Shown here: piece after piece, positions 8,215-57,777 of the stretch
How the letters are laid out: every line of letters starts with the position of its first letter
Position numbering within the stretch: the first letter of the stretch is position 1
Assembly: GCF_004010195.1 (NCBI RefSeq)
Contig: NC_057751.1
Coordinates: 6,018,997 to 6,082,996, forward strand
DNA: 64,000 nucleotides
Source of the DNA: Chiloscyllium plagiosum
Taxonomy: Eukaryota
Direction of reading: 5' to 3'
Made by a program: the position numbers and the translations under genes
Notes under the pieces: generated by a model
What the model was told of the DNA's origin: nothing
Databases searched by the model: none
Seen by the model: the letters and a program-made list of their open reading frames with translations, nothing else

Positions 8215-9185
8215 TTTTAAGTTCACACAAAATTCATTTGCTTGCGTCCTAACTCATATGATGTCCCGCTCACCCATTATTCTTGTGATCTTTCAGCAAA
8301 ATTAGTTTCTTGGCAAAGTCTCATTTTAATATTCACATCCTCATGTGCAAATCTCTCCCTGGCCTTGCCACTTCTGATCTCTGAAACCCCTTCCTACCCG
8401 ACAATCCAGTGAGGTCTCTGTGCTCCTCCCCTTGTAGCCTTTTCTGCACTGCTTCTCCATACCTTCTGAATCGAAAAGTGTGGCATCGGAAAAGCACAGC
8501 ATGTCAGGTAGCATCCGAGGAGTGGGAGAGTCGATGTTTTGGGCATAAATCCTTCATCAGGAATGTCGGGTCACAAGGGGGTTGAGCAATAAATAGGTGG
8601 GTGTGGGTGGGAGTGGGGCTGGAGGTGGGGGGAAGGGAGCTGCGAAGGTGATAGGTAGATGCAGGTGGGAGGTGATGCTGATAGATGGGTGGGGAGATGG
8701 ATAGGACAGGTCAAGAGGGCGGTGCCAAGTTGGAGGGTTGGATTTGGGATAAGGTGGGGATGGGGGTGAGATTTGGAAACTGTGAAGTCGACATTGATGC
8801 TATGTGGTCGGAGGGTCCCAAGGCAGAAGATGAGGCGTTCTTCCTCCAGGCATCGGGTGGCTTGTATTTGACTGTGGAGGAGGCCCAGGACTTGCATGTC
8901 ATTAGGGGAGTGAGAGGGAGAGTTGAAGTGGTTGGCCACAGGATGGTGAGGTTGTTTGCTGCATGTGTCTCAAAGATGTTCCCTGAACCAAGCTCTTGAA
9001 GGCCTTCCATAAACCTCTCTGGCTGTGTCCTTCTTAAAACCACGCTCTTCGAACAAGCTTTGGAGTCACTTGTCTGAATATGCCGGAGGTGTCTCAGCAT
9101 TAAATTTTGCTGCTGATTACTACAGTGAAGTATGTGGATACCTTGTACAGGATTAAAGACATGTTGAATTTATTTGTTGTTGTTA
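8215..9185 (+). mobile_element. L2-like LINE 3' relic interrupted by a Penelope-like insertion
   Basis: Decayed 'SPITPV..FKIL..KSLHGLAP..RSLRSS'-type sequence at 8230-8430 resumes after ~9000 and ends in a (GTT)n tail. Confidence 0.55.
8470..8990 (-). mobile_element. Penelope-like element 3' fragment (GIY-YIG C-terminal region plus terminal repeat)
   Basis: ANHFNSPSHSPNDMQVLGLLH..RCLEEERLIFCLGTLRPHSINVDF is followed by the terminal repeat, which carries a decayed hammerhead motif at 8529-8564. Confidence 0.88.
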
Positions 9186-10020
9186 GTTATGTGTTCAAAC
9201 TGAACTGTTGGACTTAAGCACGTAATCTCAGGGGACATTTCAGTCGAGCACGGAGGAATGTTGCATTGCCGCAAGATATTGTTGTTCACTGAATGAGAAA
9301 TTGGGCATAATTTTTAACATCCCTCCAGGTGATACCCTAATGGAGCCAATTGTCTGCATACTTCAGAAACTATTTGATATTATGTTACTTGACCATGAAG
9401 TTGAAGATTACTTGGATTAAACCAAACTGTCGTGCACATAAAAATAGGTATTTTTACCCCTGAAGAGACACCATAAAGATTATTGCAGCACCACAGAAAA
9501 CTCATTATCCAGATGTAAATCAACGTTTTTGTATTTTGCTGGTACAAGCAAGTTTATGCATTTCCTCCATAATCGTCACTGCCATTCATATTTTTACAAA
9601 GAAAGGTGGAATCTTTTCAGTTTAGAAGGGGCTTTTTGGCCTAATATACTTGTGCTGGCTCTTTGAAGGAGATGTCTAATTTATTCCCACATGCTGGGCT
9701 TTCCCTATAACCCTGCAGATCCCTTGAAATATCTGCCAGTTTGCTTTAGAAAGTTTCTATGGAGTCTAATTTCATTATTCTGCCACTTTATCACCCCTGG
9801 CTCTGTTGCCATTCACTTAAATATGTGTCCTCTGGTTTCCAATACTTTTGTTATGTCAGTTAAAAATCACACAACACCAAGTTATAGTACAAGCTTTGCC
9901 ACTTTAGACACTTGTTTCTGATTTAAGATCATAAGAACAGGGCAGATCTGTTTGTGACCTTATTTCTGCTTTGCCTGTCCTCTAATAACTCTTGAGTCCC
10001 TTGTTGACCAAAAAAATCCA

Positions 10021-10092
10021 AGATTTGGAGATGCCGGTGTTGGACTGGGGTATACAAAGTTAAAAATCACACAACATCAGGTTATAGTCCAA
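10021..10092 (-). mobile_element. Terminal fragment of another repeat, probably Penelope-like (second piece at 9859-9887)
   Basis: GTTAAAAATCACACAACA.CA.GTTATAGT occurs twice in the window. The family assignment is from recollection of similar shark repeats. Confidence 0.4.
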
Positions 10093-11992: not shown

Positions 11993-12311
11993 TCTCATAG
12001 AATCCCTACAGTTTGGAAACAGGCCACTTCACCCAACAAGTCCACACCGACCCTCCGAACAGTATTGCACCCAGACCCATTCCCCTATCCTATTACTCTA
12101 CATTTACCCCTGAGTAATGTACCTAACCCTGAACATTATGGGCAATTTAGCATGGCCAATTCACCTGACTTGCACATCTCTGGATTTTGGGAGGAAACCC
12201 ACGCAGACATGGGGCGAATGTGCAAACAGACAGTTGCCTGAGGGTGGAATTGAACCCGGGTCCCTGGTGTTGTGAGGAAGCAATGCTAACCACTGAGCCA
12301 CCATGCCACCC
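11993..12311 (-). mobile_element. HE1/V-SINE-like tRNA SINE
   Basis: A box TGGCTCAGTGG, B box GGTTCAATTCC, the same central domain as 3834-4161 (with an internal deletion) and a CR1-type tail. Confidence 0.88.
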
Positions 12312-15398: not shown

Positions 15399-15620
15399 GG
15401 CCCTTCATCATTCCTGATGAACGGCTTATATCTGAAACATTGATTCTCCTGCTCCTCGGATGCTGCCTGATCTGCTATGCTTTCCTAAGATTGTCTTAAG
15501 GTTATTTAATGCTTGAAATGTCGATTCTCCTGCTCCTCGGATGCTGCCTGACCTGCTGTGCTTTTTCAGCATCGCACTCTCAACTCTGGTCTCCAGCATC
15601 TGCAGTCCTTACTTTCTCCT
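15399..15620 (+). mobile_element. Tandem Penelope-like terminal repeat fragments
   Basis: ATTCCTGATGAA..GAAACATTGATTCTCCTGCTCCTCGGATGCTGCCTGA is followed by a second partial copy ending in the CTCCAGCATCTGCAGTCCTTACTTTCTCC tail. Confidence 0.85.
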
Positions 15621-15639
15621 TCAGACAATCTTGAATTAG

Positions 15640-17030: not shown

Positions 17031-18610
17031 GGCTCACAGGCTTGCAGGTATCTGTATTAGCTTTGATTGTTTGTTTTCCTTTGTTTCAGAAACTTGTATT
17101 CTTTTAATACAGAATGTTAATGGCCTCATGTCAATGTGTTTAGTCACTAAACACCATGGTAGCCAACTGCAAACATTTATACCATCTGAGTTGTCCAGTC
17201 TTACTATCAGCTGGGGTCATAACATTGACTACAATGGCAAGTAGATATTGGGTCCATGCAAAGTACCAGAGACTATGAGAAAGTGAGCACTGCAGATGCT
17301 GGACATCAGAGTCGAGAGTGTGTTGTGGCAGAGGAGAGGATGCTGCCTGACCTGCTGCGCTTTCCGAGCAACACACTTTCGACGAAAGTACCAGAGACAC
17401 CTGGCAAATGCTCCTTTATGAGTTGGGAGAAAAAGCATAAACTACATAAGTTTATGTTTTTAAAATGAACGCAAAATTAACCAGCAGACAGTGAACAGAA
17501 AAATTGCACTGAGTCACTTGTGGGCAATAAGCTTGGCCTTTTACTTCATAGTGTGATATTCCCTGAACTGTTTTGTTCAAACAATAATACAAGAATAGGG
17601 TTGCACCACTTTATCCCAAAGGAATATCACTTGTCATTGATTTATGCTGGTTTTGTGCCAAAATATACACTCCACAAATTGCTTTCATTTTTTTCAAAAT
17701 AAGGGCAATACCTTGCTGCCCTAGCCACTGTGAACGAATCAAAACAAAACTGATGAAACCCCACTTAAGTCAGGAACGTAGTTCCATCAGACCATTTGTA
17801 ACTGACAAGGGAATCAGTGATTACTGGAGGTCAGCAGGAAAGTAAAGTTGGGGGCACAATCAGATCAATCACGATATTATTGAGTCGCACCACAGGCTCA
17901 AGGGGGCAAATTGCCTATTCCTGCTCCTGTTTCACATACTTGTGCAAAAGCCTTGGAGTATATGTTTTCTGTATTTATGCCAGGGGTGCAAATTTGCAGT
18001 TCAATCCTCAGGCGCACAATCCAAATTCATAGTTTTTGGTATTTTACAACAATTTTAAAAAAAACCTTTTGTGATTTTATTTTTGATTTCCTCCTGTGTT
18101 GAATGCTTTTTTACAGTATTAAAATTAGTCACAACAAAGAAGTTTCAACTGTCAGATTTTCTGAAACAATGCTGTGCTTGATGTGCATAAATGATAGTTT
18201 AGTACTTAAATAATTTAACATCAATAAATAAAAAGGGACATAATGAAAGAACATAATGTACCTTCAATGATTTACTTAGGCCGGGATGTTCAAATGATTT
18301 TGTTTCACTGAGCTTGTATCTGCTGGCGTACAGGTAATCTAGACATATAGTCGGGACTTGTGTGTTTGGATAGACAATGTTTTGTACCAGATGTGACATA
18401 AACATTCTGAAACTGGAAATTTTGCCTTTTCCTGGTGGATTAATATCATTGAGTCTGAACCTGCTCTGGGTAGATGCTCACCCTCATCTCAGGAAACATA
18501 AAATATTGTTCAAAGCACTGAGTTCCCTTTTAGAATCCTTCCTTATCAATTCAAGTATCTTATGAGGAGTGGCATACTCCTGGTCCTAATCTATACGTTC
18601 ATACATATTA

Positions 18611-19480
18611 CAGAGTTATAGAGTCAGACCAGCATGGAAACAGACCCTTCAGTCTGATCAGTCCACGCCAACCATGTCCCACCTGCCTGCCCTTGGCCTA
18701 AATCCCATCAAACATATTTTATTCATGTATTAACCTCAATGTCTTTTGAATGTTGTAACTGTACCTGCATCTAACACTTCCTCGGCAGTTCATTCCACAT
18801 ATGAACCACTCTCTGTGTAAAAAGGTTGCCCCCCATGTTCTTAAATTTTTATCTTCTAATCTTAAAAAATGTTCACTAGTTTTGAATCCCCCCACCCAAG
18901 GGAAAAGACCCTTGTCATTCACCTTATCTGAGCCCTCATGATTTTATAAACCTCAATAATACCACCCCTCAACCTCTTGTGCTCCAGTGAAAAATGTCCC
19001 AGTCATCTGAAGGACTTTTGCTCGAACCGTCGATTTTCCTGCTCCTCGGACGCTGCCTGACCTGCTGTGCTTTTGCAGCACCACTCTGATCTAAACTCTG
19101 GTTTCCAGCATCTGCAGTCCTCACTTTTGCCTAGTGATCCCTGATTCTCAACTCTATATATTCCTATGTTTATTCTGTCCCATCCTGTCAGAATTTTACA
19201 GGTTTTTCTGACAGCACCCCTCATTCTTTAAATATCAATGAATACAGTCCTCATTGATTCAGTCTCTCTTCAAAGGAATCAATCTGGTAAACACTTGGTG
19301 CAATTCTTCCAAAGTGAGAACATCCTTCCTCTGATAGGGAGAACAGAACTGCACACAAAACTCCAGCTGTGGTCTCACCAAGGCCCTGTACAATTGCAAC
19401 AAGAAATCCTTTCCCTTGTACTCAAATATTCACAATGAAGGCCAACATACCACCTCCTGCTACACTTGGATGCTTATTTT
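18611..19480 (-). mobile_element. CR1 LINE 3' fragments with a Penelope terminal repeat inserted at ~19003-19132 (+)
   Basis: Tail AGAGTTATAGAGTC and CAGACCCTTCAGTC, plus ACCACTCTCTGTGTAAAAA (FTQRVV on the minus strand). The insert contains GCTGCCTGACCTGCTGTGCTTTT. Confidence 0.78.
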
Positions 19481-19484
19481 CAGC

Positions 19485-20200
19485 ATACAAGACACCTTCC
19501 CATGTTACTGCAGCGGGTGCAACACCTATCCCTTCACCTCCACCCTGCTCACCATGCAAGAGTCCAAACGTTTGTTCCAGGTGAAGCAGCATTTCACCTG
19601 TACCTCCTCCAATCTTGTGTATTGTATTTGCTGCACCAACTACTCTCCACTTGGAGAAACTAAACACAGACTGGGTCACCTCTGGTCCATGTGCAAGCAC
19701 GACCACATCCTTCCTGTAGCCATCTTGCTCACCTGTCTGTCTTCGGCATGCTGCAGTGCTTCAGAGAATCACAGCGCAAACTGGAGAAGCCACATCTTTT
19801 CTTCAAACTGGGCAGTTTACAACTTTCTGGGCTCCATATTGAGTTCAAAATCTTCATATTGTGAACCCATTCCTTCCTTTTCTTTTCGCTTTGCTTGTTA
19901 CATTCTCTGTCATCTTCTCTCTCCTCACCCCACTTGAGTGGGACTTTCTGTCCTTTCTATTCTGGCAGTTAAACACACCATTGTTCTGCCATTCTCATAT
20001 TCCAATGACTTGATATGAGCTATCAACATCCTTTCTTCCCCAGCACTCCAGAACCAACCCCCCTCCCACCAAAACATAAATGCCGGCCCTCCACACTTCA
20101 CATCTGATGAACAGTCATCTAAACTCGATAGGTTAGCTTGCTTTCTCCCCATGGATGCTGCCTGGACCATTGTAATCTCCAGCATTTTTTTGTTTTCAGA
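19485..20200 (+). mobile_element. Penelope-like element GIY-YIG fragment plus terminal repeat
   Basis: FPC...CNTYPFTS..FQVKQHFTCTSSNLVYCICC...GETKHRLG is a Penelope-type GIY-YIG region. A degenerate CTGATGA hammerhead-like motif starts at 20104. Confidence 0.82.
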
Positions 20201-20916: not shown

Positions 20917-21278
20917 TCTAGATTAGAGTGGTGCTGGAAAAGCACAGCAGGTCAGGCAGCATCCGAGGAGCAGGAAAATTGATGTTTCGGGCAAAAGCCC
21001 TTCATCAGGAATAGAGGCAGAGTGCCTGCAGAGTGGAGAGATAAATGAGAGGGAGGTGGGGGTGAGGAGAAAGTAGCATAGNNNNNNNNNNNNNNNNNNN
21101 NAAAAAGGGGAAGTGAGGAAACTGGTGAAATAAGAGCTTCAGGGCAGAGGAGATGACCTGGGGGTTGCAGTGAGAGAGAGACTCACTGAGATTCTTGTAG
21201 AGAGAGGAGGAAAACTTCTTCAAGGCAGGCATCCTTGCACGAGGATTTGCAGTAGGATTAAAGTCAACTCTTTACCTG
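20917..21278 (-). mobile_element. Penelope-like terminal fragment inserted in a minus-strand CR1 relic
   Basis: Flanked by an 11-bp direct repeat TCCTTCCTGAG (20906-20916 and 21279-21289). Hammerhead motif at 20977-21012. Confidence 0.82.
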
Positions 21279-21639
21279 TCCTTCCTGAGGTCCAGTGCCC
21301 AGTATTCCAAGTGAGATGTCACCAGGATTTATACAACTGCAGCATAACCTCTGCATCCCTGTACTCCAGATAACCACAACCTTGAATGTCCTGGCATGGC
21401 TTGAACAAGGGAGCAGCAAAATCTCGTCTTAATTAGTGGTCTTCAACCACTCTGCCATGTTTGCAGGTGCCCACTGATCTCCCACAGGAGAGTCCCAATT
21501 GACTGTAACTTCAGACTTGGAAAGCAAGGTAAGGTTTTGAGGAATAAAAACAGAAATTGCTGGAAAAGCTCAGCAGGTCTGGCAGCATCTGTGAAGAGAA
21601 ATCACAATTAACATTTTGGGTCCAGTGACCCTGAGCAGG

Positions 21640-22728: not shown

Positions 22729-23141
22729 TCTGATTTCGCTTCACAGATGCTGCCACACCTGCTGTGTTTTTCCAGCAACTTCTGTTTTTATTTCTGATTT
22801 ACAGCACCTGCATTTCTTTCAGTTTTTTTTCAGGTTTCTGGGAAATGGCAGCAATCGGTTCCATGGTGATTTTTGTTTATTATTACTTTCCGTTCTGAGT
22901 GTGGTGTAAAGAAAAAAAAAGTCCCAAAGTGATACTTGTTATTTATTATAGTCTTGCCCTTCATCTATTTAAAATGAGCTGGAGTTGGACCGTTATAACT
23001 GGTCTTCTTCTCAGGGAGATATCATTGAACTTGAACTCATTGAAGCTAGATATTTAACATCACCCCAGGAAACACAAAATCTTGCAAGTGGTATAATTTT
23101 AAAGCAATGAGTTTACATTTAGAATCCTTTTCGGGGGGATC

Positions 23142-23304: not shown

Positions 23305-23740
23305 ATGACCAAAGGGAAGGGAGCCCGCAGCTCTCAGTAAGCAGGAACCCCTCCCCCACCCTCTCCAGCTGCAGCAGAGGCGTCCGCAGCCGCCCCGGGG
23401 GACTTACCTACGGTGGCGAGCCTTGTGGAAATCATCTCTAAACTGGATGCGAAGATCAACGCTTTCATTGAAGAATCCCCAAGTCGATGGGACTCATTCT
23501 CGGCCGCGCTGCAAAAGCACGACCGAGACATTAAAGAAATCGAGCGCCGAATCGGAGGGGTGGAGCTAAAGGCCGCGACCTCCGAAACTAAAGCGCAATC
23601 GGCTGTGGATCGGGTCCGGACTCTTGAACAGCGAGTCTGGACCTTAGAGAATCATATTGATGACCTCGATAATCGAGGTCGTCGAAAAAATATTTGTTTG
23701 CTGGGCCTTCCCGAACGGGAAGAGGAAGGCCAGCTTACAG
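23305..23740 (+). pseudogene. L1 ORF1 N-terminal part (coiled coil and start of RRM) with a premature stop at codon 12
   Basis: MTKGKGARSSQ*AGTPPP..., heptad-like IKEIERRIGGVE..VRTLEQRVWTLENHIDDLDNRGRRKNICLLGLPE, matching the L1 ORF1 NRxRRxNIRxxGLPE motif. It runs into the N gap. Confidence 0.85.
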
Positions 23741-24858
23741 NNNNNNNNNNNNNNNNNNNNNNNNNNNNNNNNNNNNNNNNNNNNNNNNNNNNNNNNNNNN
23801 NNNNNNNNNNNNNNNNNNNNNNNNNNNNNNNNNNNNNNNNNNNNNNNNNNNNNNNNNNNNNNNNNNNNNNNNNNNNNNNNNNNNNNNNNNNNNNNNNNNN
23901 NNNNNNNNNNNNNNNNNNNNNNNNNNNNNNNNNNNNNNNNNNNNNNNNNNNNNNNNNNNNNNNNNNNNNNNNNNNNNNNNNNNNNNNNNNNNNNNNNNNN
24001 NNNNNNNNNNNNNNNNNNNNNNNNNNNNNNNNNNNNNNNNNNNNNNNNNNNNNNNNNNNNNNNNNNNNNNNNNNNNNNNNNNNNNNNNNNNNNNNNNNNN
24101 NNNNNNNNNNNNNNNNNNNNNNNNNNNNNNNNNNNNNNNNNNNNNNNNNNNNNNNNNNNNNNNNNNNNNNNNNNNNNNNNNNNNNNNNNNNNNNNNNNNN
24201 NNNNNNNNNNNNNNNNNNNNNNNNNNNNNNNNNNNNNNNNNNNNNNNNNNNNNNNNNNNNNNNNNNNNNNNNNNNNNNNNNNNNNNNNNNNNNNNNNNNN
24301 NNNNNNNNNNNNNNNNNNNNNNNNNNNNNNNNNNNNNNNNNNNNNNNNNNNNNNNNNNNNNNNNNNNNNNNNNNNNNNNNNNNNNNNNNNNNNNNNNNNN
24401 NNNNNNNNNNNNNNNNNNNNNNNNNNNNNNNNNNNNNNNNNNNNNNNNNNNNNNNNNNNNNNNNNNNNNNNNNNNNNNNNNNNNNNNNNNNNNNNNNNNN
24501 NNNNNNNNNNNNNNNNNNNNNNNNNNNNNNNNNNNNNNNNNNNNNNNNNNNNNNNNNNNNNNNNNNNNNNNNNNNNNNNNNNNNNNNNNNNNNNNNNNNN
24601 NNNNNNNNNNNNNNNNNNNNNNNNNNNNNNNNNNNNNNNNNNNNNNNNNNNNNNNNNNNNNNNNNNNNNNNNNNNNNNNNNNNNNNNNNNNNNNNNNNNN
24701 NNNNGTTTTATATTTTTTTTTATTTAGAAATAGTTTTTTATTGTATTGTTGTGGGTGTATTAAAGAGGGTTTATTTTTGTAAATTTTACATGTTCCATGC
24801 TCGGGATGTTCTGGATAGGGTTCCCCTCCCGAGGGGTCTCGGATTGGCCCAGAGGATT

Positions 24859-27800
24859 ATGGTTGGTCAGTCGGTTAAGTGGTGCACCTGGAATGTCAAG
24901 GGGAGTAATTCGCCACTCAAAAGGAAGAAAATATTATCAAATCTTAAGAAGGAAAGGGTTGATAGAGCTCTCCTACAAGAGACACACCTCTTGGATAACG
25001 AACACTTGAAATTACGACAGGGCGGATTTGATCAGGCCTTTTTTTCTTCTTTTAGCTCAAAAAGCAGGGGAGTTGTTATTCTTGTTCGGAAGAATTTTCC
25101 TTTCAAAATCCTCAATCAGATAAAAGATGAATCTGGACGATATATTTTGATTAAAGCCCTTATAAATGGAGAGGAATGTGGGATTTTAAATTTGTACTGT
25201 CCCCCGGCACACCCCTTTAAATTTATAACGGAAGCCTTCTCAAAATTGATGGCTCTTGGTGCACGTCATACAATTATAGAGGGAGACTTTAATTGTATTA
25301 TGGATCTGGAAATAGATAGGATTCCCAAGAGTATTGCAGGCGTATCTCCCAGATCTAGACAATTGTTGTTTTTCTACAAAGAATTTGGACTAGTAGATGT
25401 GTGGAGATGTCTTCATCCACAGGGCAGAGATTTTTCTTTTTACTCCAATCCACATAAATGTCATACCAGAATTGATATATTTTTTGCCCCCTCGATTTTT
25501 TAAAATTCCATATCATCCTGTAAAATAGGTAGTATAGCAATTTCCGACCACGCTGCTGTATATATAGAAACCAAGGCGAGGAACAACGGGACATTCCCTC
25601 AGCACTGGCGTATGGACCACTTCCTAATGAAAGATAGTAAGTTTGTAAAGTACTTCTCTCAAGAATTTAAAACTTTTTTCGACATTAATTTAGGTATGGC
25701 TAGCAACCCATCAATGATGTGGGAGACCATCAAAGCTTACGCGCGAGGTTTATCATCTCCTACTCAGCGACCCAGAAAAAATTAAAGGGAGAACAACAGC
25801 GTCTGCTCGAAGCTCGCTTAAAAGCAGCTGAAACAGCATACGCTGATAGACCTTAATTGCAAAGGATTACGGACGTTAGGACAGCTCTAAGCACTACGCT
25901 TACCCAAACGGCTCAGAGGGAAATATTATTTGCAAAACAAAGGTTATATGAATTTGGTGACAAGCGGGTAGATACTTAACATTTCTTGCAAAGAAAAAAA
26001 AGGCCCCTCAAACTATCATGTCTATCAAGGAAAGTACGGGTATTTTGACTCATGATCATAAAAAGATTAATGCGATCTTTAGAGAATTTTATTCTGAGTT
26101 ATATAAATCGCAGGATTGTGAAGATAGGACGAGGACGATGCAATCATTTTTTAAAAATTTGACCTTTCTGGGCCTAACTCCGGAACAGGTATCAGTCTTA
26201 AATGCTCCCCTAACAGACCAAGAAATACTTGACGTAATCAGACAACTTCAGAGCGGTAAGGCGCCAGGCCCAGATGGTTTTCAAGCTGAATTCTATAAAG
26301 AATTTACAGAAATATTGGCTGGTCCACTTATGGACATGTATAACTATGCATATAGTCAGGGCTGTCTCCCGCCTTTGCTGAAAGAGGCAAATATCTCTCT
26401 TATCCTTAAAAAAGGAAAGGATCCAGAAGATTGTACGACATACAGACCAATATCCTTGCTAAATGTAGATTTTAAAATCCTTTCTAAAACGTTAGCATTG
26501 AGACTAGAAAGGGTACTGCCACATATCATAAAGGAGGATCAGACTGGGTTTATTAAGGGCCGTAGATCATCCAATAATATTATAGAACATAGAACATAGA
26601 AGAATACAGCGCAGTACAGGCCCTTCGGCCCTCGATGTTGCGCCGATCCAAGCCCACCTAACCTACACTAGCCCACTATCCTCCATATGCCAATCCAATG
26701 CCCGCTTAAATGCCCATAATGAGGAAGAGTCCACCACTGCTACTGGCAGGACATTCCATGAACTCACGACTCGCTGAGTAAAGAACATACCCNNNNNNNN
26801 NNNNNNNNNNNNNNNNNNNNNNNNNNNNNNNNNNNNNNNNNNNNNNNNNNNNNNNNNNNNNNNNNNNNNNNNNNNNNNNNNNNNNNNNNNNNNNNNNNNN
26901 NNNNNNNNNNNNNNNNNNNNNNNNNNNNNNNNNNNNNNNNNNNNNNNNNNNNNNNNNNNNNNNNNNNNNNNNNNNNNNNNNNNNNNNNNNNNNNNNNNNN
27001 NNNNNNNNNNNNNNNNNNNNNNNNNNNNNNNNNNNNNNNNNNNNNNNNNNNNNNNNNNNNNNNNNNNNNNNNNNNNNNNNNNNNNNNNNNNNNNNNNNNN
27101 NNNNNNNNNNNNNNNNNNNNNNNNNNNNNNNNNNNNNNNNNNNNNNNNNNNNNNNNNNNNNNNNNNNNNNNNNNNNNNNNNNNNNNNNNNNNNNNNNNNN
27201 NNNNNNNNNNNNNNNNNNNNNNNNNNNNNNNNNNNNNNNNNNNNNNNNNNNNNNNNNNNNNNNNNNNNNNNNNNNNNNNNNNNNNNNNNNNNNNNNNNNN
27301 NNNNNNNNNNNNNNNNNNNNNNNNNNNNNNNNNNNNNNNNNNNNNNNNNNNNNNNNNNNNNNNNNNNNNNNNNNNNNNNNNNNNNNNNNNNNNNNNNNNN
27401 NNNNNNNNNNNNNNNNNNNNNNNNNNNNNNNNNNNNNNNNNNNNNNNNNNNNNNNNNNNNNNNNNNNNNNNNNNNNNNNNNNNNNNNNNNNNNNNNNNNN
27501 NNNNNNNNNNNNNNNNNNNNNNNNNNNNNNNNNNNNNNNNNNNNNNNNNNNNNNNNNNNNNNNNNNNNNNNNNNNNNNNNNNNNNNNNNNNNNNNNNNNN
27601 NNNNNNNNNNNNNNNNNNNNNNNNNNNNNNNNNNNNNNNNNNNNNNNNNNNNNNNNNNNNNNNNNNNNNNNNNNNNNNNNNNNNNNNNNNNNNNNNNNNN
27701 NNNNNNNNNNNNNNNNNNNNNNNNNNNNNNNNNNNNNNNNNNNNNNNNNNNNNNNNNNNNNNNNNNNNNNNTTATTAGATAGTCTTTATAAATCAGATAG

Positions 27801-28492
27801 AGAATGTAGAGTGCTACGGCCAATGGGGATATCCTCCATCAGTACCATTTATCATTTACTACATGAAGTATCGGGAGATATGAACAATCTGCTTAAAACA
27901 TGGGATCAGGAATTGGAACTAGAAATCTCTATAGAAACGTGGAATGACATTTGGGAAAACGCCAGAAGAATCACCAACTGTAACAGAACCCAGGCTATCC
28001 AGCTGAAGATACTTCATAGGGCCCATCTAGCACCGGATCGAGTGGCAAAATTTAAGGCAAGAGCATCTCCAATGTGTCCCAAGTGTAAAATAGAGGTGGG
28101 CACTCTTGTACATTGCCTATGGACCTGTCATAAGATCCGTAGATACTGGACTAAAGTAGCAAGTACCCTGACAGAAATTTTAAGAACGGAAATTAAAGTG
28201 GACCCTGTATCTCTCCTTTTGGGCTTTTCGAACTTTTCCTCCCTGGACATGCACGGGAAGAGACTATTTTCTATTCTCTCTTTCTGTGCAAGGAAAAATA
28301 TTTTGTTAACTGGGTGGCTGAGGGCCCCCCTGGACTTTCAAATTGGCAGAGATTAATTATGGAATGTATTCCCCTTGACGTCCTTACAAATATAGTGCAC
28401 CGAAAGACCGAATTATTTTTAAAATATGGCAGCCCTTCTTGAATTATATGAATACAGATATTTTGGCTATCCTAACAAGGGCTTTTATTTAA
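24859..28492 (+). pseudogene. L1 ORF2 (APE endonuclease, reverse transcriptase, C-terminal zinc knuckle), disrupted
   Basis: TWNVKG, LQETH, GDFN, TRID, SDH; GKAPGPDGF, YRPISLLNVDFKILSK, DQTGFIKGR; CPKC..GTLVHCLWTC. It has stops, frameshifts and a CR1 insertion at 26582. Confidence 0.92.
26582..26792 (-). mobile_element. CR1 3' end inserted into L1 ORF2 (continues into gap)
   Basis: (ATAGAAC)n tail and CAGGCCCTTCGGCCC; the minus strand reads FFTQRVVSSWNVLPVAVV..FKRALD. Confidence 0.88.
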
Positions 28493-35721: not shown

Positions 35722-37160
35722 GAGTTATAGAGTCATAGAGCTATACAGCACGGAAGCAGACCCTTCAGTCCAACATGTTCATGCCGATCAGGTATCCTAA
35801 ATAAGTCGAGTTCCATTTGCCAGCATCTGGCCCATATCCCTCTAAACCCTTCCTATTCATATACAGGCTCAACATGACCTCCCTGGGGTGGCACAGTGGC
35901 TCAGTGGTTAGCATTGCTGCCTCACAGCACCAGAGACCCAGGTTTGTTTCCAGCCTTAAGCGACTGTCTGTGTGGAGTTTGCACATTCTCCCCATGTCTA
36001 CAAGGGTTTCCTCCAGGTGCTCCGGTTTCCTCCCACAATCCAAAGTTGTGCAGGTCAGGTGAATTGGCCATGCTAAATTGTTCATAGTGTTCAGGAATGT
36101 GTAGGTTAGGTGCATTAGTCAGGGGTAAATGTAGAGTAATTGGGAAGGGGAATGAGTCTGGGTGGGTTACTCTTTGGAGGATTGGTTTGGACCTAATAGC
36201 CTGTTTCCACACTCTAGGGACTCTCTGATTCTCTGAACTCCTATACTTGATGCACTGACCAATAAAGGCAGACATACCAAATGCCCTCTTCACTGTCCTA
36301 TCTACCTACAACTCCACTGTCAAGGAACTTTGAACCAAGGCCTCTTTGTTCAGCAACACTCCCCAAATCTTTATACCATTAAGTGTATAAGTCCTTTCCT
36401 GATTTGCCTTTCCAAAATGCAGCTCACATATTTATTTCAATTAAACTCCATCTGCCACTTCTCAGCCCATTGGCCCATCTGGTCCAGATCCTGTTGTAAT
36501 CTGAGGTAACCTTCTTTGCTGTCCACTACACCTCCAATTTTGGTGTTGTCTGCAACCCTACTAACCATACCACCTTTGTTCACATCCAAATAATTGATAT
36601 AAATGATGAAAAGGAGTGGACCGAACACTGATCCTTGTGGGACACCGCTGGTCACAGGCCTCCAGTCTGAAAAGCAACCCTCCACTACCCTCTGTCTTCC
36701 ACCTTCAAGCCAATTCTGTATCCAAGTAGCTAGTTCTCCCTGTATTCCGTGTGCTCTGAACTGTCTAACCAGTCTGTCATGAGAAACCTTGTCAAATACC
36801 TTACTGAAGTCCATACAGATCATGTCCACTGCTCTGCCCTCATCAATGCTCTTTGTTACTTCTACAAAAAAACTCAATCAAGTTAGTGAGACCATGATTT
36901 CTCATGCACAAAGCCATGTTGACTATCCCTCATCAGTCCTTGCCAATCCAAATACATGTAAGTTCTGTCCCTCAGGACTTACTGCAACAACTTTCCCACC
37001 ACCAATGTCAGGCTCACAGGCCTATAGTTCCCTGCCTTTTCCTTACCACTTTTCTTAAATAGTGGAACCATGTTAGTTAACCTCCAGTCTTCTGGCACCT
37101 CACCCATGACTATTGATGATACAAATATCTCAGCAAGAGGCCCAGCGATCTCTTCCTCAG
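35722..37160 (-). mobile_element. CR1 LINE RT fragment with a nested SINE
   Basis: Minus strand reads DEGRAVDMICMDFSKVFDKVSH..VTSGVPQGSVFGPLLFIIYIN..ADNTKIGG..WAEKWQMEFN. Confidence 0.92.
35885..36236 (+). mobile_element. HE1/V-SINE-like tRNA SINE nested in CR1
   Basis: GGGTGGCACAGTGGCTCAGTGGTTAGC head, central domain TGTGTGGAGTTTGCACATTCTCCCC..GGTTTCCTCCCACAATCCAAAG and a CR1-type tail. Confidence 0.9.
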
Positions 37161-37161
37161 C

Positions 37162-37459
37162 TGAGGGTGATAGGCCGGAGAGGGGGTGGGGGCGGAGAGG
37201 TCGGGAAGAAGCCCTCTCCAGCCTATCACCCTCACCTTAACCTCCTTCCACCAATCGCATTCCCAACGCCCCTCTCCCAAGTCCCTCCTCCCTACCTTTT
37301 ATCTCAGCCTGCTTGGCACACCCTCCTCATTCCTGAAGAAGGGCTTATGCCCAAAACGTCGATTCTCCTTCTCCTTTGATGCTGCCTGACCTGCTGCACT
37401 TTTCCAGCAACACATTTTTAAGCTCTGATCTCCAGCATCTGCAGTCCTCACTTTCTTCC
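37162..37459 (+). mobile_element. Penelope-like terminal repeat with an inverted 5' segment
   Basis: 37162-37184 is the reverse complement of 37212-37234 (one mismatch). Hammerhead motif at 37329-37364; full tail present. Confidence 0.85.
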
Positions 37460-41106: not shown

Positions 41107-41355
41107 TTGCCAGTTTCGTTCTTGCACCTGTCCGCTCCACCCTCATCTCTAACCTATCACCATTACCCCCACCCTCATCTACCTTTCGCAATCTCAGCTA
41201 CCTTCCTGCCAGCCCCACTCCCCTCCTATTTATCTCTCCAACCCCTCGGCTCACAAGCCTCATTCCTGATGAAGGGCTCTTGTCTGAAATGTCGATTCTC
41301 CTGCTCCTCGGATGCTGCCTGACCTGCTGTGCTTTTCCAGCACCACGCTGTCACC
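41107..41355 (+). mobile_element. Penelope-like terminal repeat (tail-less)
   Basis: C-rich 3'UTR, hammerhead motif at 41262-41297, then GGATGCTGCCTGACCTGCTGTGCTTTTCCAGCACCAC. Confidence 0.85.
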
Positions 41356-41379
41356 TCTAAGAATTCATTATCAACACAG

Positions 41380-41797: not shown

Positions 41798-42051
41798 CAA
41801 CCAATCAGAGGAGAAAGTGAGGACTGCAGATGCTGGAGATCAGAGCTGAAAACGTGTTGCTAGAAAAGCACAGCAGGTCAGGCAGCATCCAAGGAGCAGG
41901 AGAATCGACGTTTCGGGCATGAGCCCTTCTTCAGGAATTTCCTCTTTCCTGAAGAAGGGCTCATGCCCGAAATGTCAATTCTCCTGCTCCTTGGATGCTG
42001 CCTGACCTGCTGCGCTTTTCCAGCAACACATTTTCAGCAACCAATCAGAGG
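41798..42051. mobile_element. Palindromic (head-to-head) Penelope terminal-repeat insertion with 14-bp TSD
   Basis: 93-bp inverted arms at 41845-41937 and 41946-42038 with an 8-nt spacer. TSD CAACCAATCAGAGG at 41798-41811 and 42038-42051. Confidence 0.92.
41903..41938 (-). ncRNA. Minimal type I hammerhead ribozyme-like motif (intact core)
   Basis: AUUC-CUGAAGA-A-GGGC-UCAU-GCCC-GAAA-CG-UC-GAUU. Confidence 0.65.
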
Positions 42052-49198: not shown

Positions 49199-49383
49199 GA
49201 GGCCAGGAGTCAGAGACCAGCAGTTGGAGGCCGGGAGAAGAAAAGAGAAAAAGGAAAAGAACATACAAAAGAGAAAAAAAAATAGAGAAAACAAGAAAAG
49301 GAAATGAATGAAACTAATGAACTTTGTCTGGGGTGTCCTCCGATCGCGTCTTAATACTTCCTTCAATCTGACTCTTTACCTTT

Positions 49384-50721
49384 TGTGATGCTGCTGCTCC
49401 TTTAAGAAGGTTATGTTGCCCTTGTTTTTTCTTTCAGAGGGATCATAAAGCCAGAGGTTCCGAAATGTCTGGGTTTATTTACTTGAAGAAGCTTTCAAGT
49501 TTAAAAAATATTTGTACAATAATAGGGGAGTAGCCAATTCTCCTAGTTCAGGGTTTGGTTTCATTTGGCTTTAGCAGTCAGGCTGTTTTCCAGCTGGTGG
49601 TCAGTTTTAGCTGGGAACCCAGAGGAGCTGCTGGACCCAAAGAAACAGCTCCTTGCAGATCCTCTCTCTCGCTCTGACATCTCTCCTGTAAGAACCTGTG
49701 TTTGATTTTACCTTTTATGCCAAGGGGACGTTTACATAGAACATAGAACATAGAACAATACAGCACAGAACAGGCCCTTCGGCCCACGATGTTGTGCCGA
49801 ACACTTGTCCGAGCTTAAGCACCTATCCATGTACCTACCCAATTGCCGCTTAAAGGTCACCAATGATTCTGATTCTGCCACTCCCACAGGCAGCGCATTC
49901 CATGCCCCCACCACATAGACCCCAAGATCCCTCTGCTCCTCCACCTTACTAAGAACCCTACCGTTAACCCTGTATTCCGCATTCTTATTTGTCCTTCCAA
50001 AATGGACAACCTCACACTTGACAGGATTGAACTCCATCTGATTGGTGGAGTTGGGGATAGTGAGGAGGGCTGTTGTTGGCTGCAAAGGGACTTGGATATG
50101 ATGCAGAGCTGGGCTGAGGAGTGGCAGATGGAGTTGAACCCTGTCAAGTGTGAGGTTGTCCATTTTGGAAGGACAAATAAGAATGCGGAATACAGGGCTA
50201 ACGGTAGGGTTCTTAGTAAGGTGGAGGAGCAGAGGAATCTTGGGGTCTATGTTCATAGCTCTTTGAAAGTTGCCACTCAGGTGTTCAGAGCTTGTAAGAA
50301 GGCCTATGGTGTATTAGCGTTCATTTGCAGGGGGATTGAATTCAAGAGTCATGAGGTGATGTTGCAGCTGTACAGGACCTTGGTGAGGCCACATTTGGAG
50401 TAGTGTGTGCAGTTCTGGTCACCTCACTTTCGAAAAGATGTGGAAGCTTTGGAGAGGGTGCAGAGGAGGTTTATGGGGATATCGCAAGTATTTGGAACAG
50501 CAGCATTAAGTTGTGTTAGAGTCAATTGGGTTTTAAATAATTATGTTATTCTAAATTTGGTTTTCTTTTGTTCCTGTGTAAATAAATTTGTTTTGTTTAA
50601 AACTGAGTGGTTGGGCTGCATGTATTACTCCTGGAATACCCACTTTACATCTGCTTAGAAAAGTTAGGGTCTGGGCTACCTTCTTGAAATGTTTTGAGGG
50701 GGTCTGGCCTGGTCCATAATA
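49384..50721 (+). mobile_element. Solo LTR with a nested rearranged CR1
   Basis: TGTGATG...CCATAATA ends and a TSD CTTT (49380-49383 and 50722-50725). The LTR sequence rejoins across 49735-50468. Confidence 0.88.
49735..50468. mobile_element. CR1 insertion with internal deletion, inversion and a 128-bp inverted duplication
   Basis: Minus-strand tail and 3' end at 49735-49912, minus segment 49913-50040, plus segment 50041-50468. Flanked by GTTTA direct repeats. Confidence 0.88.
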
Positions 50722-50725
50722 CTTT

Positions 50726-51275: not shown

Positions 51276-51302
51276 AAGAATTGGATCTCAGACGCAGATA
51301 AA

Positions 51303-51535: not shown

Positions 51536-52416
51536 ACACAACTAGTTCAGGATGCACCACCCTAGCAAGTGACACAAGCTAACGTGATATCGTTGTAGCA
51601 GATGACACATGTGCAGCAGAGCTCATTGAATCTTGTTTTTCTTGAATAACGAACCCTTTATCTTTTTTGATCAGTGTTTGGTACGTTTATATTATGAGCC
51701 AATAAGAAAACAAAACACACCATACTTGATTGTGATAAAACTGTCAAATAAAATCACAATTTTACAGTACGTTTTATGCAGCAATTTCTGCATGATCCTC
51801 GTATTCTGCTCCTGGATTTTTGAGTTCTTTGTATAACGCACAATTCGCTCAAAAAGGTGTCCTGTGTTCAGAGTCATAATCATAGTCAGAGTTACACAGC
51901 ACAGAAACAGACCCCTCGGTCAAACTCATCCATGGTGACCAGATAACCAAAACTAATCTTGCCACATTTCCAGCTCTAAACCCTTTCTATTCATGTACCC
52001 TATCGGATGCCTTTTAAATGTCTTCAGTGTAACCGCCTCCACCAATTCATCTGGCAACTCATTCTGTACACACCCCACCCTCTGCGGAAAATGTTGCCCC
52101 TCAGGTCCCTTTTAAATCTTTCCCCTCTCATCTTAAACCTCTGCCATCTAGTTTTGGATTCCCCACCCCAGAGAAAAAGACGTTGGCTATTCACCTTATC
52201 CATGCCATCATGATTTTATAAACCTCTATGAGGTCATCCCTCAGCTTCCGACGCTCCAGAAATAAAAGCCCTAGCATATTCAACCTCTCCCTATAGCTCA
52301 AACCCTCCAACCTGGGTAAAATCCTTTTAAATATTTCTGAACCCTTTAACAATGTCTATCTGATAAAGGAGAGACCAGAATTGAATATATATTCTAATAG
52401 TGGCCCAACCAATATC

Positions 52417-52820
52417 GCCGACCACAACAACACGAAGGTTGGAGGAAGAGCGCCTCACCTTCCGCCTAGGAACCCTCCAACCACAAGGGATGAACTCGGA
52501 TTTCACCAGTTTCCTCATTTCCCCTCCCCCCACCTTGCCTCAGTCAAATCCAACGAATTCAGCACCACCTTCCTAACCTGCAATCTTCTTCCCGACCTCT
52601 CCGCCCCCACCCCAGTCTGACCTATCACCCTCACCTTGACCTCTTTCCACCTATCACATTTCCGACACCCCTCCCCCAAGTCCCTCCTCCCTACCTTTTA
52701 TCTTAGCCTGCTTGACAATCTTTCCTCATTCCTGAAGAAGGGCTTATGCCCGAAACGTCGATTCCCCTGTTCCCTGGATGCTGCCTGACCTGCTGCGCTT
52801 GTCCAGCAACACATTTTCAG
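52417..52820 (+). mobile_element. Penelope-like 3' fragment (tail-less) with 11-bp TSD
   Basis: RRLEEERLTFRLGTLQPQGMNSDF-like end. TSD CAACCAATATC at 52406-52416 and 52821-52831. Confidence 0.9.
52728..52763 (+). ncRNA. Minimal type I hammerhead ribozyme-like motif (intact core)
   Basis: AUUC-CUGAAGA-A-GGGC-UUAU-GCCC-GAAA-CG-UC-GAUU. Confidence 0.65.
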
Positions 52821-53202
52821 CAACCAATATCCTGTACAATCCCAGTATGACATCCCAACTCCTGTACTCACTGCACTGAGCAATGAAGGCAACTGTGCCA
52901 AATGCCTTCTTCATCACCCTATACCTGTGACCCCACTTTCAAGGAATGATGCACCAGCATCTCTAGGTCTCTTTGTTTCTCAGCACTCCCCATGGTTTTA
53001 CTGTTAACTGTTAAAGTTCTGCACTGATTTGTGATAACAAAATGCAGCACCTCACATTTATTTAAATTAAACTCTGTCTACCACTCCTCGGCCCATTGGT
53101 CCACTTGATTCAGGTCCTGTTTTACTCTGAGATAACTTTCTTCACTGTTCAGTACGTACCAGTTTTTGTATCATCTGCAAACTTACCAACCATACCTTTT
53201 AT

Positions 53203-53331
53203 ATTCCTGAAGAAGGGCTTATGTCCGAAACGTCGATTCTCCTGTTCCCTGGATGCTGCCTGACCTGCTGCGCTTTTCCAGCAACACATTTCCAGCTCTG
53301 ATCTCCAGCATCTGCAGACCTCACTTTCTCC
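53203..53331 (+). mobile_element. ~130-bp Penelope-derived insert consisting only of the hammerhead motif, downstream repeat and tail
   Basis: TSD CCTTTTATATTC (53195-53206 and 53330-53341). Motif CUGAAGA-A-GGGC-UUAU-GUCC-GAAA-CG-UC at 53207-53234. Confidence 0.9.
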
Positions 53332-56024
53332 TTTTATATTCACATCCAAATCATTTCTATAAATGATAAAAAATGACCCAGCACCAATCCTTGTGGCACA
53401 CTGCTGGTCACAGGCCTCCAATCCAAAAAATAACCCTCTACCACCACCATCTGTCTCCTACCTTCAAGCTAATTTTGTATCCATTTGACTCGGTCCCCTT
53501 GGATTCCATGTGATCCAGCCTTATTAAGCAGTCTGCTGTGCAGAACCTTGTCGAACGCCTTTCTGAAGTCCAAATAGACAATGTCTACTGCTGTGCCTTC
53601 ATAAATCTTCTTTGTCACTTCTTCAAAAAACTCAATCAAGTTCATGTGACAAAGTCATGTTGACTATTCCTAATCAGTCCTTGCATTTCCAAATGCATGT
53701 GAATCCTGTCCCTCAGAAACCCTCCAACTAGTTACTCACCACTAATATCAGGCTCACCGGTTTACAGTTCTCTGGCTTTTCCTTACCTCCTTTATTAAAT
53801 AATGGCCCCACTTTAGTCAACCTCCAGTTTTCTGTCACCTCACCCACGGCTATCAATGATAGAAATATCTCAATAAGGGGCCCAGCAATCTCTTCCCTTG
53901 CTTTCCCTGATCAGATCCTGTGGATTTATCCACCTCCCTTTCTGTTATATGGACACTTTCCAAGACATCGTGATTAGTTTCCCCAAGTTCTCTAGCTTCA
54001 ATGTCATTCTCTACAGTAAATACTAATACAACATATTCACTTAGTATCTCACCCATCTCCTGTGGTTCCATACATTGATGACCTTGTTGATCTGAAAGGG
54101 GCCCTGTTCTCATTCTATTTACACTTTCGCCCTTAATGTATTTGTAGAATCTCTTTGGATTCTCCATAACTCTATTTGTCAAAGCAATCTCATGTCCCCT
54201 TTTTGCCCTCCTGATTTCCCTCTTAAGTATACTCCTACTGCCCTTATACTCATTGAGGAATTCAAACAATCCCAGCTGTCTATGCCTGACATATGCCTCT
54301 TTCTTTACCTTGACCAGAACCTCAATTTCTCCAGTTATCCAGCATTCCCGACATCTACCAGCCTTGCCCTTTGTCCTAACAGGAATATACTGTCTCTGGA
54401 CTCTTGTTATCTCATTTTTAAAGGCCTCCCACTTCCCAATCAATTTTTGAAAGTTCCTGCCTAATACTGTCAAAATGGGCCTTACTCCAAATTAGAACTT
54501 TAACTTTGAGATCAGTTCTATTCTTTTCATCACGATTTTAAAATTAATAGAATTATGAGCACTAGTCCCAAAGTGCTCCCCCACTGACACCTCGGTCACC
54601 TGCCCTACCTTATTCCCCAAGAGAAGGTCAAGTTTTGCTCCTTCTCTAATAGCTACATCCACATACTGAACAAGAAAATGTTCTTGTTCACTCTTAACAA
54701 ATTCCTGTCTATCCAAGCCCGTAATACTATGCTAGTCCCAGTCTATGTTTGTAAAGTTAAAATCCCCTACCACAACCACCCTATTGTTCTTACAGATGTC
54801 TGAGAACTCCTTACATATTAGCTTCTCAATTTCATGCTGACTATTGGGGGAGGCCTATAGTACAATCCCAATAATGTGATTATCCCTTTCTTATTTCTCA
54901 GTTCCGCCCAGATAATTTCACTGGACATTCTCCCAGGAATATCCTCCCTAAGTAGAGCCATAATGTCATCCTGAACCAAAAACACCACTGCCTCTTCTCT
55001 CATGGTCCCCCCACCCCCACCCTTTCTATCCTTTCTATATCCTGGAACATTAAGCCATCAATTCTGCCCTTCCCTGGGCGACATTTTTGCAACAGCTATG
55101 ATATCTCAGTCCCATGTTCCCAACCATGCCTTGAGTTCATCTGCCTTACCTGTCAGGCCTCTTGTATTGAAATAAATGCAGTTTAATTTATCAGCCTTAT
55201 CTTATTCTGTGCCTTGCTGTTGTCTGGAGTGACTAACTTGTTTCTCTTCTCTCCTGTACCAGCCTCAGACTTATTTGTTTTCTCACTATCTCCACCTCAC
55301 CCCACCCACTACTAGTTTAAAGCTTCCCGAGTAGCATGAGCAAATCTCTCCACCAGGAAATTGGTTCCCTTCCAATTCAGGTATAACGCCTTCTTCTTGT
55401 TCAGGTGACCTCTATCCCAGAAGACATCCCAATGATCCAAAAATGTGAATCTGTGCCTTTGCAACAGTTCCTCAGCCATGCATTCATCTGCTCTGTCCTC
55501 CTGTTCCTACTCTCACCAGCATATGGCACCATGAATAATCCAGATATTACTCCCCTTGAAGACCTATTTTAACCTTCTGCCTAACTTGCTATCCTCTCTC
55601 TGCAGAACCTCGTTCCTTTTTCTTCATATGTCATTCACACCAATCTGTACAACGACACTCTCCCCTTTGAGAATATTCTGCACCCTCTCTGAGGCATTCT
55701 TCAGTCTGGCACCGGGTGGCACCATTCTGTTGTCTTGTTGTTGGCATCAAAAATGTATGTTTGGGCCCCTGATTAGAGAGTCCCTGATTGCAATCTATGG
55801 CTTGGAAAATAACATTTCCTCCATGACAATGGAGTCAGTCTCAGTACCAGAAATCTGTCTGTCAGTGCTAAATTTCCCTGCTCCAGTATCCAAAAGCATA
55901 TATGTTTGTGATGGGGATAGCCACAGGAGACTCCTACACTTCCTACCTATCTCTCCTATCTTTCCGAGCAGTAACCATTCTATCTGACTGTATCTGCAGT
56001 TTTTCTACCTTAGTGAAAGTGCCA

Positions 56025-57777
56025 TCCAGGAACTTTCCACCTATGTTCAGGACGCCACCCACGCCCTTCACCTCCTCCAAGACGTTCATTTCCCTGGCCT
56101 CCAACGCCTTATCTTCACCATGGACATGCAGTCACTGTACACATCTATCCACCACAACGAAGACCTCCAAGCCCTCCGTTTCTTCCTGTCACACCGTCCC
56201 AATCAGTACCCTTTCACTGACACCCTCATCCGCCTGGCTGAACTGGTCCTCACCCTTAACAACTTCTCCTTCCAATCCTCCCACTTCCTCCAAACCAAAG
56301 GAGTAGCCAAGGGCACCCGCATGGGCCCCAGCTGTGCCTGTCTCTTTGTTGGGTACATAGAACAGTCCATCTTCCACAGCTACACCGGCACAATTCCCAA
56401 CTTTTCCTCCACTACATCGCTGACTGTATTGGCACTGCCTCATGTTCCCAAGTGGAGATTGAACTTCACTAACACCTTTCACCCCACCCTCAAATTCACC
56501 TGGACCATCTTGGACACCTCCCTCCCCTTCCTGGACCTCACCATCTCCAGCGACCGACGGACATCTACTACAAACCCACTGACTCCCACAGCTACCTGGA
56601 CTACACTTCCTCCCACCCTGCCTCCTGTAAAAGCAACACCTGTTATTCCCAAATCCTCTGACCCTGCCACATCTGTTCCTAGGATGACCAATTCCACCTT
56701 AGAAAATCCCAGATAGCCTCCTTCTTCAAAGACCACAGTTTCCCCTCCCACGTGGTCAACAATGCCCTCCAGCACATCTCTTCCATTTCCCACACCTCCG
56801 CCCTTGAATTCTACCCCTCCCAATGCTACAATGACAGAACCCCCCCAGTCCTCACCTTCTACCCCACCAACCACTGCACACATCGCATCATTCTTCACCA
56901 CTTTTGCCATCTACAAACCACCACGAAGGATATATTTCCCTCCCCACCACTATCAGCTTTCCGGAGAGACCATTCCCACTGTGACTCCCTTGTCAGATCC
57001 ATGCCCCCCCACCAGCCCTCACCCCACTCCCGGCACCTTCCCCTGCCACCGGAAGAATGCAAAACCTGTGCCCACACCTCCTCCCTCACCCCTGTCCAAG
57101 GCTCCAAAGGATCCTTCCACATCTGACAGAAATTTACTTGTGCCTCATTGACTGTATCTGTTGCACTCGATGTGGTCTCCTCTACAACGGGAGACAGGAT
57201 GCCAACTTGCAGATCATTCCAGAGAACATCTCTAGGACAGCACACTAACCAACCCCACCACCCTGTGGCTGAAAACTTCAAATCCCCTGCCCACTCCACC
57301 AAGGACATGCAGGTCCTGGGCCTCCACCATCGCCAAACCCTTACCACCCGATGCCTGGAGGAAGAATGCCTTATTTTCCACCTTGAGACCCTCGAACCAC
57401 ACAGGATTAATGTGGATTTCACCAGTTTTCTTATTTCCCCTAACCCCACCTTATCCCAGTCCCAAGTCTCTAACTTGGCACTGCCCTCTTGACCTGTCCA
57501 TCGTTTTTCCCATCTATGCCCTCCACCCTCTTCTCCGACCTATCCTCTTCACCCCTAACATCATTACCAATCTCACCCTCAGCTACATTTTCCCCAACCC
57601 CAACCCCTTCCTATTTATCTGTCAGCACCCCCCAACCCACAAGCCTCGTTCCTGATGAAGGACTTATGCCTGAAACGTCGATTCTCCTGCTCCTCGGATG
57701 CTGCCTGACCTGCTGTGCTTTTCTAGCACCCCACTCTCAACTCTGATCTCCAGCATCTGCACTCCTCACTTTCTCCT
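56025..57777 (+). mobile_element. Penelope-like element, 5'-truncated: RT, GIY-YIG and terminal repeat
   Basis: LIFTMDMQSLYTSIHH, LAELVLTLNNFSF..FLQTKGVAKGTRMGPSCACLF, LPFLDL, CKTCAHTSS, CTRCGLLY and EEECLIFHL. Hammerhead motif at 57648-57683; tail ends CTCACTTTCTCC. Confidence 0.93.

Follow-up and report, generated by a model that had tools for sequence, protein, structure and literature searches.

Hammerhead motifs dispersed over a Chiloscyllium plagiosum locus are probably carried by dead 3′ ends of a Neptune-type Penelope-like element

A 64,000-nucleotide (nt) stretch of the Chiloscyllium plagiosum genome (contig NC_057751.1; hereafter, the window) contains dispersed copies of a short repeat with the core of a hammerhead ribozyme, which raises two questions: what kind of element left these copies, and do they still act as ribozymes? 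The original prediction, made from the letters alone, had placed ten such motifs on Penelope-like terminal repeats, and its positions and strands proved right for all ten. A search with the family motif, in which up to four substitutions were allowed, recovered nine of them, compared with 0.01 on average, and never more than 1, in 100 dinucleotide shuffles. A strict descriptor of the minimal hammerhead retained five motifs (41262, 41903, 52728, 53203 and 57648), all within the ten, with a shuffle mean of 0.08 (100 shuffles). As had also been stated, the motif family is the most frequent repeat of the window, with a self-BLAST depth of up to 14, compared with up to 5 for segments of other repeats. 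Additionally, we found four partial copies that were absent from the earlier list (15509, 19008 and the pair 17277/17338).

Our answer to the first question, to which we assign a probability of about 90%, is that a very abundant Penelope-like element (PLE) of the Neptune type, which encodes an endonuclease, left the repeats behind as dead 3′ ends, each consisting of a pseudo-long terminal repeat (pseudo-LTR) with or without a tail of 35-40 nt. Based on tblastn comparisons, the open reading frame (ORF) remnant at 56024-57423 is collinear with full-length relatives that encode a reverse transcriptase (RT) and a GIY-YIG endonuclease (EN) (P0015, P0017, P0022 and P0040), and its best protein matches are 66-69% identical; those that are named come from carpet sharks, at 59-69% identity. 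In Pfam, the window ORF matched RVT_1 with an E-value of 4e-4, below the cut-off, and its pieces alone did not match GIY-YIG; the full-length relatives carry both domains. The RT-linker-EN remnant stops approximately 225 nt 5′ of the motif at 57648-57683, whose core is intact and whose stem II keeps three of its four pairs, and EN remnants also precede the motifs at 8529 and 52728. In the alignment, a CX2-5CxxC linker between RT and EN spans a frameshift in the window and is intact in those relatives that are long enough to include it. Because such a Cys-rich linker between RT and EN defines the Neptune and Nematis types (PMC8557442), its presence in the aligned region points to one of these two types.

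The termini of the copies also bear the marks of a PLE. The copies terminate at two 3′ points approximately 37 nt apart, which delimit the Penelope "tail"; three inverted structures are present, and exact target duplications of 11-14 bp were found in 4 of the 16 units examined. These tails, inversions and target duplications match those of PLEs described in PMC8557442 and PMC3846280. At the head-to-head insertions 41798-42051 and 17260-17398, the tail is confined to the inverted partner. At the former, the inverted copy 41809-41938 (-) begins at helix I and has an intact motif, and the direct, tail-less copy 41938-42038 (+) begins 7 nt upstream of helix I and has a damaged one. In the upstream direction, 7 of 14 copies continue into the 3′ untranslated region (UTR) or the gene of the element. 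An ATG lies 18 nt past the predicted cut, and its frame is open through the tail in four of six tailed copies and interrupted by a stop in one subfamily; a weak protein search for the putative N-terminus returned two candidates, none with E ≤ 1. In copies 19008-19127 and 20925-21012, codon 15 of this putative ORF-start frame is a stop, a variant that is common in reads, and this subfamily (19008/20977) may be non-autonomous or start elsewhere. As a separate observation, the target duplications at 41798-41805/42038-42045 and 52406-52413/52821-52828, which belong to independent insertions of the same subfamily, begin with eight identical bases. These two cases may reflect a target preference; the reverse strand includes ATT, and the anole endonuclease preferentially cuts at 5′-ATT-3′ (PMC11167929).

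By every testable feature of its sequence, the motif is a minimal hammerhead of the kind found in metazoan PLEs. The core CUGANGA ... GAAA ... UH is intact in 7 of the 10 copies, two copies having suffered G12A at a CpG, and stem II retains all four pairs in seven. The unpaired nucleotide separating positions 9 and 10.1 is A in all ten, while the adjoining 10.1-11.1 pair is G-C in seven, G·U in two and broken in one. The palindrome ACGU (15.1-16.1), which stands where stem III is lacking, is kept in five copies and CpG-decayed in the remaining five. With these counts, the earlier statement that stem and core are kept was overstated: all parts are intact together in just three copies (41903 on the reverse strand, 52728 and 53203). 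The statement that most damage is of the CpG type holds narrowly (13 out of 23 mismatches across the 36 nt, a tally that leaves out two variable columns).

Further evidence on the fold came from 86 related loci, of which 80 were the best among 353 metagenome hits and 6 were additional. Of the 23 testable loci, 9 had a sense minimal hammerhead no more than 500 nt past the ORF end, compared with none in antisense and none in shuffles. When hits in the related loci were chosen by the core letters alone, 22 of 41 were fully paired, compared with 0.01 of 3.9 in shuffles. In all 22 fully paired motifs, A is the extra nucleotide after A9; G10.1-C11.1 is G-C in all 12 distinct stem sets, and the stem I pairs vary between A-U, C-G, U-A and G-C. 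Covariation in stems I and II, which had been suggested as a check, was evident in a 15-motif alignment (4 motifs from the window and 11 from related loci, hand-picked after a pairing filter), in which six of eight pairs change on both sides; slid controls were far lower. Within the window family, the sole core variant shared between copies is at the free position N7. Because many of the related motifs are fully paired, their stem I pairs vary, the only shared core variant is at N7 and stem I has a U-A variant, the fold is, as judged from these comparisons, kept by selection in the parent elements.

Two caveats attached to the original prediction fall away. The extra A after the core corresponds to the extra nucleotide after A9, which is, together with G10.1-C11.1 and the palindrome, a conserved and defining feature of the motifs in PMC4209133. 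The U·U in the weak stem I is replaced by U-A in 164 of 1306 RNA reads and at 10% and 40% of contig depth (among the 40 of 145 variants listed). The core features, the identity of the element and the related loci thus bear out a minimal type I hammerhead of Penelope-like origin with ACGU replacing stem III. We also observed a related marine subfamily (L010, L013, L026, L040 and L081-L086) in which many copies have C for U at core position 4 (CCGACGA) and keep their stems. L081-L086 are six contigs of one genome that is labelled "bacterium" in a prokaryote collection and carries animal-type Neptune elements, likely a host contamination of the bin.

With respect to the second question, we infer that the individual copies are probably inert. 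What weighs against our reading as a whole is that a full-length shark element was not seen, that a naive count of mismatches in core and flank (0/100 vs 21/400, p = 0.012) favours the core, that the corrected count of private decay (1/110 vs 13/470, p = 0.49) covers 13 copies and has low power, and that the RNA evidence consists of one poly(A) single-cell run (X19; a second run, X20, gave no aligned reads), of which approximately 2% was read and in which the test of RNA ends is weak because a poly(A) library would miss rapidly degraded cut products. An excess conservation of the core, for which the original prediction had proposed to look relative to the neighbouring repeat, was rejected once the count included three partial copies and excluded, at 11 columns, the non-CpG variants that copies share. 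Core and stems taken together gave the same picture (7/269 vs 13/470 for the flank, p = 1.0), and CpG decay was alike within and outside the motif (15/72 vs 6/25). In the RNA run, 2280 family reads were aligned, 95% of which continue into unlike flanks, with orientations of approximately 40:60; approximately 1,300 reads span the region of the cut, and no pile-up of molecule ends was seen anywhere in this weak test.

The original prediction had suggested that the copies could cleave host transcripts by dimerising in cis or in trans. We consider it very improbable that intact copies do so often enough to be of consequence for the host. Three of the ten copies are intact and the family is transcribed in poly(A) RNA; moreover, dimers of related motifs, the monomers of which did not cleave, cleaved weakly in vitro (PMC4209133). 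The nearest intact pair on one strand (52728 and 53203) is separated by 475 nt, and its predicted ACGU:ACGU pairing is approximately 0.002. The catalytic dimer model reaches -6.8 kcal/mol, compared with -21.1 kcal/mol for a mispaired dimer, in nearest-neighbour energies that omit core contacts. The 41903 motif is locked with its inverted partner in a hairpin of approximately 95 bp, the predicted fold of 41798-42051 being one long hairpin (-196 kcal/mol, z -25). The anole motif did not cleave unless the protein of its element was present, its cleavage was not needed for insertion and no RNA-seq ends were found at its site (PMC11167929); one of nine Xenopus dimers cleaved. With neutral decay, isolated intact copies, one of them held in a hairpin, and no pile-up of RNA ends, host cleavage is not supported. 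Another rival reading, improbable in our estimate, would be an independent non-autonomous family, either a short interspersed element (SINE) or a retrozyme, that has its own source genes and is mobilised in trans by a PLE. The fixed 5′ end that many short copies have in common, the head-to-tail joints from 52821 to 52729 (one contig in X15 and two in X1), the stop in the putative ORF-start frame of subfamily 19008/20977 and the report of retrozymes in one chondrichthyan genome (bioRxiv 10.64898/2026.07.22.740005) would fit such a family. The subfamily variants, however, are common to long and short copies, half of the copies run on into the element as described above, and a copy beginning at +1 would be without the box at -30. 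The earlier label "SINE-like" holds for size and number and not for nature, the copies being PLE ends: instead of a non-coding head of their own, their 5′ ends are element 3′ UTR or unique flank. The copies are not a retrozyme because two intact motifs never stand in tandem in the window; retrozymes are characterised by at least two complete units in head-to-tail succession, which were found nowhere in the window, and the joints are rare in contigs.

Under our reading of the repeats as dead PLE ends, the pseudo-LTR of the active parent would hold a minimal type I hammerhead whose RNA fold is under selection. Without stem III, this hammerhead would need a partner, so that two ACGU strands pair, and probably also the protein of the element itself, the dependence on dimer and protein being taken from the literature. 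It would serve the RNA cycle of the element; inserted copies would then decay neutrally and, for the most part uncut, be carried along in transcripts of either orientation.

The 5′ ends of the copies show a pattern of their own. A52728, the first base of helix I, is located 32 nt upstream of the predicted cut, which falls after C52759 in the intact motif 52728-52763 of the insertion 52418-52821, and it is a hot spot of 5′ junctions in the family. Among the best 18 of 786 loose-end rows, the 5′ loose ends at 52728 comprise 182 reads in X19, 221 contigs in X15 (with 145 more at 52729) and 70 contigs in X1. Consensus agreement at these ends is low (0.32-0.41), and depth, which we do not take as copy number, climbs 5-10 fold across the point. 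In the window, the first base of helix I is the start of 3 of 13 copies, and the cut is the start of none of them; the listings of the related family require the motif from stem II onward, so that copies starting at the cut are invisible there. All six long window copies have a T/A box at -31 to -36 (52695-52701 in the insertion 52418-52821), and 19 of 30 copies of a related family on marine metagenome contigs have TATAAA at -29 to -31 of the equivalent A. The context of the first base of helix I is initiator-like. Locus L080 mirrors 41798-42051, with an inverted, tailed copy that begins at the first base of helix I and a direct copy that is tail-less. As a side observation, contigs of X15 return to 52728 from two points, 52759 (the base of the predicted cut) and 52762, and carry a G directly ahead of 52728; these joints and the rare head-to-tail joints onto 52729 may have arisen as duplications through microhomology or may be traces left by templates with a cap at their end.

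As a refinement compatible with dead PLE ends, we tentatively propose, at somewhat less than even odds, that transcription of Neptune-type elements, from those of sharks to those of marine invertebrates, is driven by a TATA-initiator promoter that places the mRNA start at helix I or just upstream of it, and that the copies of 94-131 nt and the tailed inverted partners are run-off cDNAs extending from an internal RT start at the tail site, close to the 5′ end of the mRNA, to the capped end of uncleaved mRNA. The hammerhead would then be the first 36 nt of the mRNA, the templates would be uncleaved, and cleavage would take off a 32-nt capped leader. The pile-up and depth rise at 52728, the absence of window copies starting at the cut, the boxes near -30 and the tail on the partner that begins at helix I (41809-42038 and L080) are in line with this. 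Since internal RT start and the use of unprocessed RNA have been shown for the anole element (PMC11167929), run-off cDNA would be, given the window pattern, the simplest reading of the short copies. Nevertheless, members of the subfamily of copy 20977, which has an extra T before the motif, would clip at 52728 too, the association of tail and start point, classified by eye, is not significant (5/7 vs 2/7, p = 0.29), and the Penelope of D. virilis starts farther upstream, an intron and 46 nt away from helix I, from a promoter called TATA-less. The chief competitor of run-off, which we regard as rather unlikely, is microhomology or RT stalling, in which the cDNA end would anneal through ATT(C) of the motif to AT-rich, ATT-containing targets, with no promoter involved. 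The 12-bp target duplication of the insertion 53203-53333 overlaps the first four bases of the insertion, one base overlaps at the 41938 junction, and the ATT preference of the anole endonuclease points the same way. Other A/T-rich places of the motif, however, are not hot spots among the rows listed, and the conserved -30 box in two distant families would be left unexplained.

Minimal hammerheads on PLE repeats at thousands of copies per vertebrate genome are already described: Cervera and De la Pena (2014, PMC4209133) reported them in the pseudo-LTRs of metazoan PLEs, with approximately 4,000 copies in the coelacanth and 9,000 in Xenopus. The window motifs resemble theirs in the CUGANGA core, the extra nucleotide after A9, G10.1-C11.1, the 4-bp stem II, the short stem I, the palindromic ACGU without stem III and the position downstream of RT-EN; their copies are likewise dispersed and single, in the thousands. 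The closest is the Neptune motif of Acropora digitifera (Fig. S3 of that paper), which is nearly identical. In contrast to those motifs, stem I has U·U in most window copies; furthermore, the species in Table S1 and Fig. S3 include no cartilaginous fish, and 5′ junctions at helix I go unreported in the available part.

PAc, a Poseidon element of Anolis carolinensis (Frangieh et al. 2024, PMC11167929), shares the pseudo-LTR hammerhead and two RT start sites that yield the tail; RT starts there 85-92 nt below the cut, compared with 3′ ends at 62 and 99 nt below the cut in the window. PAc differs in belonging to the Penelope/Poseidon clade, in having no Cys linker and in its ORF, which starts at stem II instead of at a candidate ATG past the cut. 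Vertebrate non-LTR retrozymes (bioRxiv 10.64898/2026.07.22.740005) share type I hammerheads from PLE pseudo-LTRs; they are tandem, with at least two consecutive complete motifs, whereas the window copies are dispersed or head-to-head. The Penelope pseudo-LTRs of Adineta vaga (Arkhipova et al. 2013, PMC3846280) also have the tail on one of their inverted pseudo-LTRs and target duplications, together with an ORF start within the pseudo-LTR, a putative TATA box with initiator and an inverted pseudo-LTR shorter than the direct ones. They differ in their low copy number, and the shorter inverted pseudo-LTR was not tied to a transcription start or a hammerhead in the available part of that paper. 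In the literature covered, which excludes most subscription papers, we found promoter work in D. virilis and no statement tying together 5′ junctions, start site and helix I. On minimal hammerheads in sharks, we found the retrozyme preprint and a whale-shark preprint that reports a Penelope-like expansion in introns, although bioRxiv supplements outside this coverage may name shark families. Further sources cited are PMC2377424, PMC6155905, PMC6765202 and 10.1101/443036.

Database searches added little to these comparisons. Rfam gave five weak matches in the window and no hammerhead up to E = 1, and a PDB sequence search gave a single unrelated match (E 0.39). The family pattern had no matches in viral contigs, metagenome contigs or plasmids, and among viral contigs picked by protein, none of 42 pattern matches was confirmed.

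The units of the main family are listed in Table 1. Two details were read by eye: an 11-nt inverted bit of the motif lies directly 5′ of 15410, and a 15-nt inverted repeat (14/15, 15487-15501/15618-15632), not a direct target duplication, borders the coreless copy 15509-15621. Remnants of two other families are also present. One, at 19482-20195 (+), is a second Penelope-like family with an endonuclease remnant followed by a heavily decayed hammerhead-like motif with different stems near 20105. The other, at 21557-21625 (-) and 22738-22812 (+), with motifs at 21589 and 22746, shares the ATG block, and in its 21589 copy all 5 bp of stem II are perfect, one more than the main family has. Other decayed pieces of long interspersed elements, three of the four with Pfam RVT_1, are located at 23341-28356 (with two large assembly gaps; presumably L1-like) and at 36440-36877, 49876-50403 and 53856-54491 (which we take to be CR1-like RT fragments).

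Table 1. Units of the hammerhead-bearing repeat family in the window
Feature	Coordinates	Strand	Details
Old tail-less copy	8474..9008	-	Endonuclease remnant 9008-8781; damaged motif 8529-8564 (G12A)
Two adjoining pieces	15404..15621	+	Damaged motif 15410-15445 from helix I; coreless tailed copy 15509-15621
Head-to-head insertion without hammerhead	17260..17398	both	14-bp target duplication; inverted tailed 17277-17325, direct tail-less 17338-17383
Tailed copy cut off within core	19008..19127	+	GAAA damaged
Tail-less copy reaching assembly gap	20925..21077	-	Motif 20977-21012: core intact, ACAU, stem I broken
Insertion with inverted 5′ piece	37159..37456	+	Inverted piece 37159-37211, part of 3′ UTR, motif 37329-37364 (G12A), tail
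5′-truncated tail-less copy	41116..41358	+	Motif 41262-41297: core intact, two G·U in stem II, AUGU replacing ACGU
Single head-to-head insertion	41798..42051	both	14-bp target duplication; inverted and direct copy
5′-truncated tail-less insertion 52418-52821	52406..52831	+	11-bp target duplication 52406-52416/52821-52831
Short tailed insertion 53203-53333 beginning at helix I	53195..53341	+	Intact motif, one G·U in stem II
Decayed 5′-truncated Penelope-like ORF	56024..57423	+	RT, Cys-rich linker, C-terminal GIY-YIG region; several frameshifts and stops; tblastn with relatives
3′ UTR and pseudo-LTR with tail	57424..57778	+	T/A box 57612-57618, motif 57648-57683, ATG 57698, tail to approximately 57778

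This locus offers one thing worth keeping: short copies that share a fixed 5′ end. If this end is the cap site, one mechanism would account for why these copies are short, why the tail is on one side and why the inverted repeat is the shorter one, and the genome would keep a record of the element's 5′ end in a very large number of copies. The ribozyme would then be a protein-triggered decapping switch on the message of the element, and not an enzyme that frees the template, and the purpose of the PLE hammerhead would become a testable question.

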